Shown: piece by piece, positions 35,343-61,213 of the stretch
How the letters are laid out: every line of letters starts with the position of its first letter
Position numbering within the stretch: the first letter of the stretch is position 1
The notes under the pieces: generated by a model
Database searches by the model: none
What the model saw: only the letters and a program-made list of their open reading frames with translations
What the model was told of the DNA's origin: nothing
Position numbers and translations under genes: made by a program
From: Escherichia phage Esco_phi_B-01
Length of the DNA: 64,000 bases
Reading direction: 5' to 3' (one strand)
Sequence record: OP292222.1

Positions 35343-35346
35343 TTAA

Positions 35347-35364
35347 GGGCCGCAAGGCCCTTTT
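35347..35364 (+). terminator. intrinsic terminator (gggcc-gcaa-ggccc + TTTT)
   Basis: GC stem with GNRA loop and T run. Confidence 0.6.
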
Positions 35365-39128: not shown

Positions 39129-39163
39129 ACTAAATGGAGGCTTCGGCCTCCTAAGAGGAAATT

Positions 39164-46977: not shown

Positions 46978-47253
46978 ATGACTAAAATTGAAATCGTTTC
47001 CGAAATTGCTACTATTGTTTCCATTTTGATTAAAACGGATTGTGAAGACATCATGCAACGCCGTGATGAGTTTATTGCCTTTTTGAATGAGTTAGGTATT
47101 CGTAATGAACATGGAAAGGAACTTAACGGTCTATCTTTTAATAAACTCTTTAAGTCTTTAACTGAAGATGAACGTGATACTCTTATTGAGCAATTTAACG
47201 AAGGGTATGAAGATATACACCGTTATCTAATGATGTATACCTCCAATTTTTAA
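46978..47253 (+). CDS. asiA: AsiA anti-sigma70 factor
   Basis: IVSILIK...FIAFLNE...LTEDE...LIEQFNEGYE...YLMMYT matches T4 AsiA; 91 aa. Confidence 0.88.
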   Translation: MTKIEIVSEIATIVSILIKTDCEDIMQRRDEFIAFLNELGIRNEHGKELNGLSFNKLFKSLTEDERDTLIEQFNEGYEDIHRYLMMYTSNF

Positions 47254-47903
47254 CGAGTTCGACCTAATGTCCTCCCGGCCTGACCACACATAGACGAAAG
47301 TCTAGGAAATCCTAAATCCGGTTTGGTATCGTACCAATATAATGATATCGAGCCGGCATAGATGTTATCCAAATTAAAAAACGGGCATGAAAACATATAC
47401 GTGAATTGGGTTTTCTTCTTTGTAGGAAGGAACACAGTTTCTGTACTTGATTCAAAATAGTTTCCGTTAACTCCCGCCATATATTCTACTGACGTTTTGT
47501 CAATTGGAAACCCTCCCGTATTTTTTGCGTCTACCGTTTCCGGTAATTTACCCTCATAAGCAACCATATCCACAAAATAATTCATGTTGGTTGGTCTAAA
47601 AGAATATATTGCTGTGAAGTCTGCGCCTGAAGAAGAATGCACTATTCGGAGCTGCTCGATAGCCGCAATTTTAAATCTATTGTCCTGGTCTTGTCTAATC
47701 ATTTCAGTATAAGAGGCATAAGTTGTCTCTTTATAAAAGTTTAGAATATACTCGCCTTTATACCAAACTAATGCCATAAAGAACAATAATATTACGACTA
47801 GGACCCGGGAAAAAACTACTTTCCCGGAAGAAGTATCTTTAAAAATTCTATCAAGAAGTCCAAAAAGTAGGTCTGATAATGAAAATCCTACTTTTGGTTC
47901 CAT
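47250..47903 (-). CDS. t: holin T
   Basis: LSDLLFGLLDRIFKD, single TM, YMFSCPFFNLDNIYAG as in T4 gpt; 217 aa. Confidence 0.9.
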   Translation of the reverse strand: MEPKVGFSLSDLLFGLLDRIFKDTSSGKVVFSRVLVVILLFFMALVWYKGEYILNFYKETTYASYTEMIRQDQDNRFKIAAIEQLRIVHSSSGADFTAIYSFRPTNMNYFVDMVAYEGKLPETVDAKNTGGFPIDKTSVEYMAGVNGNYFESSTETVFLPTKKKTQFTYMFSCPFFNLDNIYAGSISLYWYDTKPDLGFPRLSSMCGQAGRTLGRTR

Positions 47904-47921
47904 ACTTTTCTCCTTTAAAGA

Positions 47922-47929
47922 TATTTATA
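47922..47929 (-). promoter_or_regulatory. T4 late promoter TATAAATA (minus strand) for t
   Basis: plus-strand tatttata; RBS AAGGAG between box and ATG. Confidence 0.55.
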
Positions 47930-47945
47930 ATTTAATACTTTCGTA

Positions 47946-48722
47946 TTATACCCAAGACCCGTAAATAGTACCTGTGGCACCCCATGAAGGACTATTACCA
48001 CTTACAGCAGGCCCTGCAGCTCCAGGTGGAGACATGGATACACTGCGTCCATAACCCCAGCCGCCTGCAGCGCCTGCGTCACCGCCCCAACCGCCACCAA
48101 ACTGTCCGCCGGCATCCCCGGGACCACCGGCCCCAGCATAACTAGCGTTACCGCCAGGTCTATAACTAGTTGCACCACCTAACCCGAATGGTCTGCCACC
48201 GCCACCGCCGCAGGTTGAGCCAGAAGGATAGCTATTTTGCAATGATGTAGCACCGCCACCACCGCCACCACCACAGATAACACCATAGTTCCATATGCGT
48301 AAACGCCCACCAATTTCATTATAAATTGCTGTACCGCCTTGTTGGCCTCCACCGCCATTGGTTGCGCCATTACCACCGCGTCCCCACATATGAACCCCAC
48401 CATGAATATTCAAAGTAACGTATTCGTTAGGGATGTCACTATTCATAAAGAACAATGGAAGGTCTCTAGTATAAGATACTAAATCGCCGGTGATATTAAA
48501 CACAATAGGTGCAGCGCCGGCTTCAAAACAACGGTCTCTAAACCAATACCCGTTGAAGTTGTGGTCCGCCCCAAGTGTGTGAATTATTTCAACAGACCGA
48601 CCTATCATATTACTCATCCAAAATGGAACACCCATTCTCAATCGTTGGGCTGCTCCTGCCATCCAAGGGTCCCCAGTTTGTACCCTTGCAGACCATCCTA
48701 CCCACGGTCCTTCAACTGCCAT
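47946..48722 (-). CDS. 38: gp38 tail fiber adhesin (T2-type, glycine-rich motifs)
   Basis: polyglycine tracts ([20 protein letters not shown]); [11 protein letters not shown] region like T2 gp38; start at the ATG that follows SD GGAGG. Confidence 0.85.
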
Positions 48723-48734
48723 ATAAACCTCCAA

Positions 48735-48748
48735 GGGGCCTAGGCCCC
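48735..48748 (-). other. perfect palindrome ggggcctaggcccc between the gene 37 stop and the gene 38 RBS
   Basis: seen directly. Confidence 0.4.
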
Positions 48749-48753
48749 TCTTA

Positions 48754-51700
48754 TTATTTTAACAATGATTTAACTAAAGCTTTAAGTTCTTCAATCTCTG
48801 ATTTCAATTCTGCTATTTCGGCAGTGTGCTCATTGATTGCAGCTGTATTTAAACCAATTACACCGTTATAGTTCAAACGAAGTAAAGCTTCACCATCAGG
48901 GTCACCTTCAACCAATTCAGGTAAAATAGCTTGAACTTCTTGGGCAATTAAACCAGCATTAGGTTCCCATTTCTGATTACCTTCCTCATCTAGGCCTCGC
49001 TTCTGCATATAAGTGTAACCGTTAATTTTAGAAAGCTTCTGAGAAGCATTTTCAAATTTAACAAGGTCCTTTTTAACACGAATATCAGAGCGGACATAAA
49101 CATCGCGGACAAACGTAGAATAGGCATCACTTTGTTGGACTAAATGCCCATAAGAAATAATAGCTCTTCCTGTTTCGGTCCACAAAGCACCGGTGGTATC
49201 CCAAAGACCTTGATGAATCTGATAACCGGCTGACCATGAAGCAATATGAACACCATTGGCAACCATATTGATTCGGCCATCGCCACCATGAACTAATCCG
49301 GTATCATTATCACCAATAACAAGACATGGTCCGGCCCACACAGGGTCACCGCCGCCAGCTGATAATCTTGCTCCAGTTTTAACCATGTTAGGAACAAACA
49401 GAGTTCCATTGTGGTGGAATTCATATATAGCTTGTGGGTCAGAACCGTTTTCTTGGTTACCTACACGAATAATACCTTGCGCCCATGTATTAGTGATGCG
49501 TCGCATGCCAAAATCAACACCTGATATGTATCCTTCGTTAGTAATACCAGATTTTCCTTTGATAATTGGATAATAACTATCATTACCAACATTACCAAAA
49601 TCAACAAATACCGGTGCTTCTTGCTTCCATTGGTTTCCCCAATCGCCAGCCTGGTGGGATGCCCAGACAGAGCCATTAATAAAAAGACGGTCCCTATTAA
49701 AATTAAAAGTGGCTGAACCTTGTGGGTTTAAAGCAATATCGCCGTCTGCATTAATATTTACGCCTGAATTAGTTTGAAAACTATAAATTGATACAGCATT
49801 ATCGGCACCGCCGTTACCTACATACCAGTTATCAATACCAGCTTTTTGTCCTTTCATATAACCAGATTCGGTTGCAGCACTGTTAATAACAATAGCATCC
49901 GAGTTTGCATTCAGCGTTAAACGCCCGGTCATTGTGTCGCCGCCTTTACCTACACGAGTATTCACCGCTGCGTCAAGGTTAGTAGCACCGCTATACTTGT
50001 TCCAAATAGAACCTGCAATATTACCATCAGTATTCATGAAAGCTGTACCGGCATATAAGCGGTTCTGAGCCATGAAGTTACCTTCTTTGGTAAAGCGCCA
50101 GTATTTTAATCCGGTTGTAACGCCATCGCCCTGCAAATCACCTTGAGCAACAATTCGGTATTCGCTCGTGGTGCGGTCCATACCTTGAGTAATAGTTACA
50201 TTAGAAACTGTATTTTTCTGCTTGGTAATTGGATAGAATGCTTGGGTTGCTGCACCAAGTGTTTGATACAACGGAGCTTTAGTCGTATTCTGGTTGGCAT
50301 AAGATGCACCATTACCAGCAGGGAATTCTAATACGCTGTTAGCAATAAAAGAAACTTGGTCAGCCGCTAAATTAGGGATTTTAACTTGACCGGTGTCTAA
50401 CGTAATACTTAATGGGCGTAATGGGCCTAATCCGCCACTTTCGCCGGCATTAACATTGGTTGGGATAATATGCAGCTGGTCTTCTGAATTTCGGAAAATA
50501 ACACCATATTTATCATTCCAAATACGAAGACCACTAGCAGCGCGGACTTTAATTTCATTGGAAACATACAGATTGCGTTTTAAGGATGTATCTTGACTGA
50601 CAGACAATCCTTCGACGATGTTCATCGTACCGTTTAAATAAGATTCGACTTTACCTGCTGTAGTTCGTTGAATATAGTGCATCCAGCCGGTAGCATCAGA
50701 TGTTTCCAATACGTTTTTACGAGAACCACCTACCGTATTAAAAGTGTCACCCCAACCTTTGAGCTCTATATTATCAACTGAACTATATCCTGTGGTACTT
50801 CCTTTAAAAATCACAGTGGAAGCGTTACCACGACCGTCAATATTAACCGAACCACCACGGACTTCAACGTTACCAGGAGTAACCAACAACCCACCATCAG
50901 TGTTAACGTTTGTTACACCTTTACCACGGAAATAATGGTGGTATTTACCACTCTGATGATAACCTAAAAGAGTCTGTCCATCACCAAAGCCGTTTTTATC
51001 ATTAGTAGTATTAACAATAACTAATGGATAGTTTTGAGCTGTAGGAAGAATTAAATCAGAACCGTTGGTTGAATAACCAGCAACTAACTGTTTAAGGCTT
51101 GTAACTTCAGTCGGAGTTGTAAGTAAAGTATAAGCTCCATTATTAACTGTATGGAACTGGCCGTCTTGTTTCCATTTCAAACCTGTGTTATTGTCACCAA
51201 GAGCAATTGAAGCCGTCCCTAATTCAGAATATCCTTTAGGGCCACCTGGAAGACCTACAGAAATAGAATGACCGGCTTTCAATCCACCGGACCAGGTAAA
51301 CGACCAAAGATAAGTGTCTAAGCCATCTCCGGAATACCAGGCTATTCCGTCATTAACATTAACTTCGTGGAAAATACCTGCTCCTACAGCATTTCGCATA
51401 ACACGGAGGTGGTTAATAGCCGTTTCGCTTTCTGCCAATGGAGTGTTATTTGATAATGAAGATATATCGTAATCGCCGGCGGCTTTACCGTCGGTAATAA
51501 CTTTATTAGTATAAATTATTGGAGATTTTACCGATGTTCCACCAGAAATAGATGGAGCATAAAATAAACCGTCACCGTTGAATGCAAAAATATTAGATGT
51601 TGAATTAGTGTAATCCTGAACACGAACATTTAAGATTTGCTTGGTATCCCCAGCACGGTTTTGAGAATAAATTATGCCTCTTTCACGCGCATCAGCCAAA

Positions 51701-52074
51701 TCCTGGAATCGAACGTGGGTAGTTCCTGCACCCCGTACAAGAACTTCACCGTTATCTGTCATTAGGCGAGATTTTGCTGTGATATCACCATTTGCTGTTA
51801 TACTTCCGGATGTCGTATAACTACCTGTTTGGGTAAAAGCACCCTTCAGGGCATAATCGCCGGTCTGGTTGTAGTTACCGTTATGAATAACGTTTCCGTC
51901 GATATTACCACCTTTAGCAAAGCCAAGGTCGATAATCGCTCCAGTGTCATCTTTGGTAAATAACAAACGGTCTTTTAAGTTAATAGCCAGCTCGCCTTCA
52001 GCCAACTGCGCTGGCGTAGGACGTACACCAGCTACTTTACTTCTTTTAAATTGTATCTGTTTTAAAGTAGCCAT
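48754..52074 (-). CDS. 37: gp37 long tail fiber distal subunit with C-terminal intramolecular-chaperone (peptidase S74-like) domain
   Basis: N-terminus [13 protein letters not shown] as T4 gp37; C-terminus SDIRVKKD...[15 protein letters not shown]...coiled coil. Confidence 0.9.
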
Positions 52075-52082
52075 AATGCCTC

Positions 52083-52730
52083 TTAATAATAACCAAAATC
52101 TTGAATAGAATCTTTTTGAACAATCTGGTCAAAGCGAGGAACGTGTCCTGCACCAGAGGCCGGATTCCGTGAAATAAAGTTAGGAGCCGCTAGCACTCCA
52201 TCCATTATTTGCATGTCAGTATTATTTATTTGGACCTGTTTTGCGTTATCTACTAATGACAATCCAACTTGGGCTTTAGTAGGGGTGTTGCCTGGGCTGA
52301 ATACGCGGCCTGATTCATCATAAACTTGACGGAATAACGAATCACCCATTACAGTAAGACGTTTAGCACCAACTGTTGTATTTGGGTCAAATATCATAAA
52401 CGGAGTACCATCTTCCGTTTCATATCCAAAAGCACCTTTAATACGGAAAGAAGCTGTGAACGGGGCTCCGCCGGTTCTTGCTCCTAATTTAATACCATAT
52501 CCATTAGTATCATTAAAGGTCAAACCTTTTTCAAAATACACGTTGTTCTGATAATTACCACCGTTAGCTTTTGAAACGAAATCGTTATCAACTGCTTGAG
52601 GTTTATTATACTCGGTGTAAACTTTATATGTTTTGTAAAGAAGGTCGTTTGATACAGGCGTTAAAGGAAAATTACCTTGGTGCCATAATACCGAACCTCC
52701 TGCTGTAGAACCTAATTTTAAATCTGCCAT
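52083..52730 (-). CDS. 36: gp36 long tail fiber connector
   Basis: MADLKLGSTAGGSVLWHQGNFPL matches T4 gp36 N-terminus. Confidence 0.88.
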   Translation of the reverse strand: MADLKLGSTAGGSVLWHQGNFPLTPVSNDLLYKTYKVYTEYNKPQAVDNDFVSKANGGNYQNNVYFEKGLTFNDTNGYGIKLGARTGGAPFTASFRIKGAFGYETEDGTPFMIFDPNTTVGAKRLTVMGDSLFRQVYDESGRVFSPGNTPTKAQVGLSLVDNAKQVQINNTDMQIMDGVLAAPNFISRNPASGAGHVPRFDQIVQKDSIQDFGYY

Positions 52731-61187: not shown

Positions 61188-61213
61188 GGGAAGACTTCGG
61201 TCTTCCCTTTTTG
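61188..61213 (+). terminator. intrinsic terminator (gggaagac-ttcg-gtcttccc + T5)
   Basis: 8-bp stem, UUCG loop, T run. Confidence 0.7.

Follow-up and report, generated by a model that had tools for sequence, protein, structure and literature searches.

Does the long tail fibre of Escherichia phage Esco_phi_B-01 (OP292222.1) end in a tip that matures by autoproteolysis and then carries a separate adhesin, and what is the palindrome that lies between the two genes concerned? An original prediction, made from the letters of a 64,000-nucleotide stretch of this genome (hereafter the window), raised both points and implied that a self-cleaving gp37 joined to a separate adhesin was a special combination. 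We followed it up computationally and conclude that the locus very probably encodes the distal module of the long tail fibre in a T-even phage of the T2/S16 type. On the minus strand, the genes run in the order g37, g38 and holin t, the same order as in the Dhakavirus IME281, and the surrounding genome is Dhakavirus-like. The features of the locus are collected in Table 1.

Table 1. Features of the gene 37–gene 38 locus, in window positions
Feature	Position	Strand	Basis
Gene 37, long tail fibre distal subunit (1106 aa, 118.7 kDa precursor)	48754-52074	minus	ORF
Predicted mature gp37, aa 1-995, 106.4 kDa	49090-52074	minus	Alignment with S16 gp37 (6F45_A) to the cleavage site
Peptidase S74 intramolecular chaperone (IMC) domain, aa 996-1106, 111 aa, 12.3 kDa	48757-49089	minus	PF13884, 6F45_A, AF2/Foldseek
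Ser996 codon, predicted nucleophile and first residue of the released fragment	49087-49089	minus	Aligned with second Ser of S16 DLNVS^SDRRIKK
Lys1001 codon, predicted general base of the Ser-Lys dyad (S-x4-K)	49072-49074	minus	Conserved in homologue alignment
Intercistronic RNA hairpin GAGGGGC-CUAG-GCCCCUU, 7 pairs including an outer G-U	48733-48750	minus	Fold and conservation
Shine-Dalgarno GGAGG of gene 38	48728-48732	minus	Directly after the hairpin, 5 nt before ATG
Gene 38, receptor-binding adhesin, predicted monomeric (258 aa, 26.1 kDa)	47946-48722	minus	PF21721 and PF05268, PHROG 2056
gp38 N-terminal attachment domain, aa 1-40, with W7, W20, W35	48603-48722	minus	Pfam and S16 gp38 alignment
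gp38 glycine-rich specificity region, ~aa 110-258, motifs interleaved with variable loops	47949-48395	minus	35% Gly

The C-terminus of gp37 matches the S74 chaperone family

In the profile search, gp37 fell at E=0 into PHROG 1699 ('long tail fiber protein distal subunit'); its Pfam matches were Gp34_trimer, gp37_trimer and Peptidase_S74; IME281 gp37 shares 93% nucleotide identity with it. The C-terminal sequence was identical to that quoted in the original prediction, which had seen hallmarks of an S74 chaperone in the last ~110 aa and suggested a profile search of this region. That search returned PF13884 (Peptidase_S74) at aa 996–1055, covering profile positions 1–57 of 58 with 47.6 bits (E 2.1e-12) against a curated gathering cut-off of 22 bits, and the last 143 aa aligned with S16 gp37 in PDB 6F45_A (E 1.4e-37), the SD-R-K motif included. 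The domain occupies the last 111 of 1106 aa, in a protein that also bears fibre distal-subunit profiles and trimerisation domains. A protein homologue search with the C-terminal 148 aa yielded 19 short proteins, all of them carrying PF13884; this number sufficed for a shallow alignment, though not for surveying prevalence.

The Ser996/Lys1001 dyad is intact (S996-D-I-R-V-K1001) and aligns with S-D-R-R-I-K of S16. Across the gp37 C-terminal homologues the pattern S-D-x-[RK]-x-K is conserved, with Lys1001 nearly invariant (at least 90%) and Ser found at position 996 in 13 of the 14 sequences aligned at this column; in the homologue P0010, the nucleophile Ser is replaced by Pro. An AF2 model of the gp37 C-terminus, built from a 15-sequence alignment and as a monomer only, reached a pLDDT of 75 overall and of 85–94 over the S74 domain, with a long C-terminal helix at model residues 111–147; it superseded a single-sequence AlphaFold prediction of the last 168 aa, which was uninformative (pLDDT 42.6). 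Foldseek matches in the PDB at E<0.1 were solely of the S74 type, namely the MyRF ICA (7DC3; E 2e-6, TM 0.49) and the endoNF chaperone (3GW6; prob 0.9). The TM-scores to solved S74 domains were modest (0.38–0.49), because the model is monomeric and does not include the trimeric intertwined state. Sequence and model together support the assignment of the gp37 C-terminus as an S74 intramolecular-chaperone domain, as originally proposed.

The position of the cut had to be revised. According to the passage of PMC7917993 that cites Dunne 2018, the last 113 aa of S16 gp37 autocleave at DLNVS^SDRRIKK, exposing the dock for gp38. Alignment with this site puts the scissile bond before the Ser of SDIRVK and not after it, as had been claimed, such that cleavage is predicted at R995^S996. 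By analogy, autoproteolysis would release a 12.3-kDa fragment from gp37, and the C-terminal residues of the mature protein (...DVYVR995) are predicted to form the docking tip for gp38.

gp38 resembles the S16 and PP01 adhesins over its full length

The two genes are separated by a 31-nt spacer, and the gp37 stop codon, TAA at 48754–48756, is followed by a second TAA at 48751–48753. The ORF lister picked a TTG at 48734 as the start of gp38; we place the start at the ATG at 48722 (MAVEGPW...) because Pfam Gp38_N aligns from residue 1. The Shine-Dalgarno sequence of gene 38 is unpaired in the MFE fold.

The product matched PF21721 (Gp38_N) at aa 1–40 (profile positions 1–40 of 40, E 8.6e-20), PF05268 (GP38) at aa 45–258 (profile positions 1–218 of 218, E 1.4e-73) and PHROG 2056 (E 2e-98); its PDB matches were PP01 gp38 (9V85, E 1.5e-68) and S16 gp38 (6F45_D, E 5e-47). 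The T4 gp38 chaperone family was absent from its Pfam and PHROG matches, which comprised adhesin families only, and gp37 ends in the S74 domain, not in a T4 needle tip. W7, W20 and W35 align with the three attachment-domain Trp residues of S16 gp38; in the (gp37)3–gp38 structure, Trp prongs of gp38 insert into pockets of gp37 (PMC6851490). Glycine makes up 25% of the protein and 35% of aa 110–258, with 14 Gly runs that include G7 (151–157) and G5 (172–176), and G151–G157 aligns with GRM3 (151–158) of S16. Thus, the earlier view of the neighbouring gene as an adhesin with long polyglycine tracts is borne out by both Pfam families and by the G7 and G5 runs, and the sequence evidence supports gp38 as a full-length adhesin of the S16/PP01/T2 type.

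Identity to IME281 gp38 is at least 90% in the N-terminal 90 aa, 86% over aa 91–120 and 56–76% in the glycine-rich region, with the variability concentrated between the glycine-rich motifs. The loop set has at most 78% identity to any listed record, except UP19 (95%). For receptor assignment, the literature consulted (PMC12032242, PMC3157838) offered no characterised adhesin whose variable loops are similar enough; the gp38 of RB69 is 73% identical to that of Esco_phi_B-01, and RB69 is reported there to need OmpF, FhuA and the LPS core.

The palindrome is conserved as an RNA hairpin

Between the gp37 stop codon and the gp38 Shine-Dalgarno sequence, the spacer holds a perfect 14-nt palindrome (GGGGCCTAGGCCCC, 48735–48748) within the 16-nt inverted repeat AGGGGCCTAGGCCCCT (48734–48749), which contains CCTAGG. 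The window holds 7 perfect 14-nt palindromes, no enrichment over the ~5.4 expected; a palindrome in which six or more of the seven pairs are G:C is expected only 0.018 times in 64 kb, and GC-rich hairpins as a class are enriched (11 seen vs 1.2 ± 1.1 in simulations). We compared the site among relatives, the more diverse of which came from a related-locus search rather than from an exact 16-mer scan of IMG/VR for the SD–ATG region (59 loci, mostly chance, with 8 gp38 loci). The hairpin stood at the same place in every relative examined, between divergent flanks, and was conserved in Tequatro-, Mosig-, Dhaka- and Gelderlandvirus as well as in more distant loci. Pairing was retained at all six inner positions of the stem, twice through compensatory change (A-U to U-A and G-C to C-G). 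The sense-strand loops of relatives are non-palindromic, UUCG or UUAG in place of the CUAG of Esco_phi_B-01, and the centre was asymmetric in all relatives examined (TTCG, TTAG, TTCT, CTCG, TTTG), which led us to reject perfect symmetry as the feature under selection. The fold energy is -13 kcal/mol on the sense strand vs -11.9 on the antisense strand.

As judged from this comparison, the palindrome is a conserved GC-rich mRNA hairpin directly 5′ of the gp38 ribosome-binding site, and its perfect DNA symmetry is incidental, resulting from the CUAG loop variant. The perfect 14-nt palindrome described originally does lie between the genes, but it is the core of a 16-nt palindrome that is really a conserved RNA hairpin and is perfect solely in this phage. 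Most likely, the hairpin acts on mRNA stability or processing or on the amount of gp38, a role proposed by homology.

An intrinsic terminator would be a different kind of element, either stopping part of the late g37 transcript and so lowering g38, or blocking antisense (plus-strand, early-direction) read-through from the asiA side. We consider this unlikely, although it carries some weight: the homologous hairpin is labelled 'putative transcriptional terminator' in two GenBank records, some distant relatives have 3–4 U after the sense-strand stem, and the scan calls the palindrome terminator-like on the plus strand, where CTTATTATTT comes after the hairpin and five of the eight bases after the stem are T. 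However, the sense strand in this window has just UU after the stem and then GGAGG, the antisense T-tract is not kept in distant loci (L079, L080), and it is only on the sense strand that the loop of relatives has the stable UUCG form. Furthermore, the late promoter TATAAATA, looked for between g37 and g38, was not found there, its sole nearby copy preceding t; efficient termination would therefore abolish the adhesin. Terminator-like sites overall (4 vs 3.9 expected) and sigma-70 promoters (16 vs 13 expected) showed no enrichment. An Rfam scan of 47200–52400 gave a sole match, c-di-GMP-I within the holin gene (E 0.43, 22 bits vs a gathering score of 35), which we treated as chance.

A joint reading of hairpin and adhesin goes further, and we regard it as rather improbable. 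The hairpin would serve as an expression-ratio device giving ~1 gp38 per 3 gp37, through partial termination, stabilisation of the g37 3′ end or a block of translational coupling, and might double as a recombination joint for adhesin swaps, while the loop set of gp38 may specify a receptor that is not predictable from characterised adhesins.

We give very little credence to a role for the palindrome as DNA, whether it bound a dimeric protein, formed a cruciform or, as a site of the recombination or restriction type, marked the edge of a swappable adhesin cassette. The perfect 16-nt inverted repeat with its CCTAGG would suit such a site, as would its location where the highly conserved IMC borders on gp38, a place of evident mosaic exchange; recombination near conserved motifs has been reported for the gp37/gp38 locus (PMC3157838). 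But the centres of relatives are asymmetric and stem complementarity alone is kept, by way of compensatory changes, which is the signature of a hairpin, and the window contains ~11 GC hairpins of this type. We conclude that the hairpin is not a DNA-level site.

The gp37–gp38 pairing is widespread

The junction of the IMC 3′ end with the gp38 5′ end occurs in 249 phage records. A tblastn search of phage genomes gave 178 records with an IMC of 95% identity or more, and the IMC of phage JS10 shows 100% identity. Upstream of gp38 homologues in distant loci, an SD-R-K domain is likewise present. Far from being special, the combination is canonical in T2, T6, S16 and hundreds of relatives (PMC3157838; PMC6851490). 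In the part of PMC3157838 that cites Drexler 1986, the gp37 C-terminus of T2 and T6 is described as cleaved and then capped by gp38, and the same source places gp38 of these phages at the fibre tip as the host-range determinant.

That the S74 domain is instead a retained, non-cleaving trimerisation module and gp38 mainly an assembly chaperone, as in T4, is scarcely credible: several GenBank and RefSeq records do carry the label 'distal long tail fiber assembly catalyst', and the Pro of P0010 means that non-cleaving variants may exist, but this label was carried over from the naming of T4 genes, the Ser996/Lys1001 dyad is intact here, gp38 belongs to adhesin families PF21721 and PF05268 with the solved S16 and PP01 adhesins, T4 gp38 is reported to differ strongly from the S16 adhesin in its amino-acid sequence (PMC6851490), and S16 docking, as described in the relevant passage of PMC7917993, needs the cleavage-exposed end.

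In the cleaving module that we favour, gp37 would be made as a 1106-aa precursor, in which the 111-aa S74 chaperone would nucleate trimerisation and folding of the beta-helical fibre. The Ser996/Lys1001 dyad would then cut R995^S996, freeing the 12.3-kDa fragment and exposing a hydrophobic fibre end. One gp38 monomer, made from the same late transcript, would dock on this end through its N-terminal helical bundle (W7, W20, W35) and turn the variable loops of its polyglycine-II sandwich towards a receptor protein in the outer membrane. Both the cleavage of gp37 and the capping of three gp37 chains by one gp38 are drawn from homology.

Host range is predicted to be set by a swappable, monomeric adhesin of 258 aa docked on the gp37 end that self-processing leaves. 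Across Tequatro-, Mosig- and Dhakaviruses, the IMC and the N-terminal domain of gp38 appear as near-universal 'adaptors' and are therefore useful for host-range engineering. The main value of the analysis lies in annotation, as it corrects the legacy 'assembly catalyst' label on many records.

Comparison with known systems

Intercistronic hairpins of the C(UUCG)G type in T4 mRNAs were reportedly described by Tuerk et al. in 1988 (PNAS 85:1364). The hairpin of Esco_phi_B-01 is like them in its short GC stem and its location between T-even cistrons, and its relatives share the C-G closing UUCG tetraloop; the CUAG loop here differs in being without the special UUCG stability.

Among S74 proteins, endoNF of phage K1F (PDB 3GW6; Schulz et al. 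2010) belongs to the same family and fold class and has a Ser-Lys dyad with the same five-residue spacing. Its chaperone is released after the trimer has folded, and the same release is predicted for the gp37 IMC. By contrast, the endoNF IMC sits on a tailspike enzyme and not on a fibre that is later capped by another protein, and identity is 11–13% in the structural alignment.

For gp38, the best solved match is that of PP01 (PDB 9V85; PMC12892980), which covers aa 37–257 and has the glycine-rich motif scaffold in common. The loops between the glycine motifs differ, and OmpC binding is therefore not transferable to gp38 of Esco_phi_B-01.

T2 and T6 (Drexler, Riede & Henning 1986, J Mol Biol 191:267; Riede et al. 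1985-87), compared here by their description in PMC3157838, are alike in the removal of the gp37 C-terminus and in the gp38 tip, but they are Tequatroviruses with other gp38 variable segments and defined receptors (OmpF/FadL, Tsx).

In S16 (PDB 6F45; Dunne et al. 2018, Structure 26:1573), gp37 likewise ends in an S74 IMC, alignable with that of Esco_phi_B-01 over 143 aa and with the S-D-x-R-x-K-K-D motif in both phages; gene order is the same, as is the three-part layout of gp38 (attachment domain with its Trp residues, beta-helix, and polyglycine sandwich with a central G7/G8 run). A GC hairpin also lies between the genes in Melville, a Salmonella phage of the genus Gelderlandvirus like S16. 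The differences concern the length of gp37 (1106 aa here vs an annotated gp37 CDS of 2,223 nt, ~740 aa, in Melville), the residues before the cleavage site (LNVS^S in S16 vs VYVR^S here), the gp38 variable loops, and the receptor and host, with OmpC being the S16 receptor and E. coli presumably the host of Esco_phi_B-01. The pairing of gp37 with gp38 is the normal design of T-even phages that have a gp38 adhesin, already known from the T2 biochemistry of 1986 and the S16 structure of 2018.

Results

The genome is that of a T-even-type phage, and the region 47946–49100 lies on its minus strand. We examined the C-terminus of gp37, the distal subunit of the long tail fibre, which the original prediction had taken for a self-cleaving S74 chaperone domain; the C-terminal sequence quoted there agrees exactly with the ORF translation. 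Pfam placed a Peptidase_S74 match at residues 996–1055 (47.6 bits, cut-off 22, E 2e-12). Since SDIRVK opens at Ser996 (codon 49087–49089), with Lys1001 five residues further on, the domain comprises the last 111 residues of gp37. A PDB sequence search aligned the last 143 residues with chain A of 6F45, which is a fragment of gp37 from Salmonella phage S16 (E 1.4e-37), with S16 ...RDLNVSSDRRIKKD opposite the C-terminal stretch of our gp37; the auto-processing domain of MyRF (7DC3) was a weaker match. Alignment with database homologues revealed a conserved S-D-x-[RK]-x-K motif and a conserved 11-residue core, and PF13884 was present in all of them. A single-sequence AlphaFold model had a pLDDT of 42.6; the alignment-based model reached 85–94 over the S74 domain. 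This model had two significant Foldseek matches in the PDB and no others: the MyRF ICA (7DC3), at E 2e-6 and prob 1.00, and, at prob 0.9, the intramolecular chaperone of endosialidase (3GW6). Thus, from the profile match, the 6F45 alignment, the motif conservation and the structural matches, the gp37 C-terminus shows every testable defining feature of an S74 domain. One homologue (P0010) carries PDRRVK in place of SDRRVK, with Pro at the position of the nucleophile Ser; this may reflect a sequencing error or a variant that does not cleave itself.

The downstream gene had been described as encoding a polyglycine adhesin, and this was borne out. Glycine makes up 35% of gp38 residues 110–258, with G7 and G5 runs. 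The protein gives full-length Pfam matches to Gp38_N (E 9e-20) and GP38 (E 1e-73), and it also matches PHROG 2056 ('tail fiber protein; host specificity'), and the solved gp38 structures of PP01 (9V85; 1.5e-68) and S16 (6F45_D; 5e-47, aligned end to end). Many GenBank/RefSeq records of homologues still bear the name 'gp38 distal long tail fiber assembly catalyst', and one reads 'tail protein and peptidase'. The former names what the T4 protein does; that protein reportedly differs greatly in sequence (PMC6851490), and both names are systematic annotation errors.

Features of the gp37–gp38 junction and GC-rich perfect hairpins
Feature	Coordinates	Strand	Remarks
Gene 37	48754-52074	-	1106 aa; ORF listing and raw sequence
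gp37 stop TAA	48754-48756	-	second TAA adjoining at 48751-48753
Palindrome GGGGCCTAGGCCCC	48735-48748	-	extends to 16 nt, 48734-48749
gp38 Shine-Dalgarno GGAGG	48728-48732	-	
Gene 38	47946-48722	-	258 aa; start ATG at 48722
Late-promoter motif TATAAATA	47922-47929	-	perfect T4 type; in the 42-nt gap between gp38 stop and t start
Holin gene t	47250-47903	-	next after gene 38
Ten other GC-rich perfect hairpins	6284, 13804, 14115, 15370, 17620, 35345, 39136, 42734, 53770, 61188		
C(UUCG)G-loop hairpins	39136-39151, 61188-61207		among the ten
GCAA-loop hairpin	35345-35362		among the ten

The Gp38_N alignment begins at residue 1 of MAVEGPW, so the ATG is the true gp38 start; it rules out the TTG at 48734 that a mechanical ORF listing had assigned. 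The double-stop ending of gp37, AAATAATAAG, is shared with most close relatives. Only four perfect T4 late-promoter motifs occur across the whole window. Because one of them precedes t and none was found between genes 37 and 38, t is probably transcribed from a late promoter of its own, and gene 38 probably relies on read-through, its message being read from the gene 37 transcript through the hairpin. Within the holin coding sequence (47503–47562, minus strand), a weak Rfam match to c-di-GMP-I, which scores 22 bits where the gathering score is 35 (E 0.43), is almost certainly due to chance.

The 14-nt palindrome noted between the two genes is real, but it extends further and forms the core of a conserved RNA hairpin within the 31-nt spacer from the gp37 stop to the gp38 Shine-Dalgarno. 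At this position, every relative examined has a GC-rich stem capped by a loop of four bases: GGGGC-TTAG-GCCCC in IME281, JS10 and QL01, GGGGC-TTCG-GCCCC in WFK and G4507, GGGCC-TTCG-GGCCC in BF15 and VR5, GGGCC-TTCT-GGCCC in Melville, and AUGGGGC-UUCG-GCCCCAU and similar forms at more distant loci with unrelated flanks. In a gap-free alignment of nine sequences, the six inner pairs were intact in all nine, two pairs had changed on both sides in a compensatory manner (A-U to U-A; G-C to C-G), and 95% of cells were paired, compared with 22–70% when the partners were slid. The loops of the relatives are asymmetric, and their mRNA strand is often of the C(UUCG)G type, reportedly characteristic of T4 intercistronic hairpins (Tuerk et al. 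1988). The stem covariation and the asymmetric loops identify an RNA hairpin as the selected object, and the perfect palindromic symmetry of the DNA in Esco_phi_B-01 is a by-product of its CUAG loop. The predicted fold is −13 kcal/mol on the sense strand versus −11.9 on the antisense strand, and leaves the Shine-Dalgarno free. In the old AR1 sequence (AF208841), two C residues are missing from the 3′ arm; compression at the GC hairpin during sequencing may account for this. The window holds 11 GC-rich perfect hairpins, against 1.2 ± 1.1 expected from composition-matched simulations; they thus constitute a class in this genome.

Discussion

We favour a role for the hairpin at the mRNA level: it may affect how stable the message is or how it is processed, or determine how much gp38 is made compared with gp37. 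Read on the plus strand (48734–48760), where CTTATTATTT comes after it, the palindrome was scored terminator-like, and in principle it could halt early read-through that runs antisense into the late fibre genes. Distant relatives do not share this T-tract. A true terminator on the sense strand is less likely, although in two GenBank records the homologous hairpin is annotated as a terminator and the terminator scan found the palindrome terminator-like on the opposite strand, since only UU lies beyond the sense stem.

The 281-nt junction (3′ end of the chaperone domain, spacer and 5′ end of gene 38) occurs in 249 phage records spanning Tequatrovirus, Mosigvirus, Dhakavirus and Gelderlandvirus. 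The 111-residue domain of JS10 shows 100% identity to ours; 178 phage records, drawn from three genera, match it at 95% or more, and 1182 phage records contain recognisable relatives. An SD-R-K domain also lies directly upstream of gp38 homologues in distant metagenomic loci. Therefore, an S74-type gp37 combined with gp38 is the norm, and S16-like fibres are the commoner type in T-even phages (PMC6851490). The surrounding genome is Dhakavirus-like: the fibre genes share 93% nucleotide identity with Dhakavirus IME281, and phage Ec2-ASingh matches the early region (30–47 kb) at 97% identity. Compared with IME281, gp37 is 100% identical over residues 1–500 and 80–100% over 500–1000, and gp38 is 90–96% identical over its first 90 residues, 86% over 91–120 and only 56–76% over the glycine/loop specificity region (47946–48395, minus strand); the best full-length gp38 match is that of phage UP19 (95%). 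gp38 is thus a mosaic of the familiar kind, with an exchanged specificity region. The chaperone domain (48757–49089, minus strand), which is predicted to be cleaved off, shows much stronger conservation than the fibre that it folds, and together with the hairpin and the gp38 N-terminus it forms a conserved block between variable flanks, plausibly a recombination anchor.

In passages of PMC7917993 that cite Dunne et al. 2018, the last 113 residues of S16 gp37, an intramolecular chaperone, are autocleaved after trimerisation between two serines (DLNVS^SDRRIKK), which exposes the gp38 docking surface. Because our sequence aligns with that site, the scissile bond should be R995^S996, before the conserved Ser and not after it as had been proposed. 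Cleavage would split the 118.7-kDa precursor into mature gp37 of 106.4 kDa and a fragment of 12.3 kDa (computed masses); the gp37 trimer would next be capped by a single gp38 monomer, whose variable loops would face an outer-membrane protein as receptor. The analysis confirms the observation and supports its interpretation, with the conserved hairpin and the receptor as the residual points of curiosity. Three tryptophans of S16 gp38, described as prongs that fit into hydrophobic pockets in trimeric gp37 (PMC6851490), align with W7, W20 and W35 here, and its central glycine-rich motif (151–158) aligns with G151–157; the feature is a textbook T2/S16-type fibre tip, already known.
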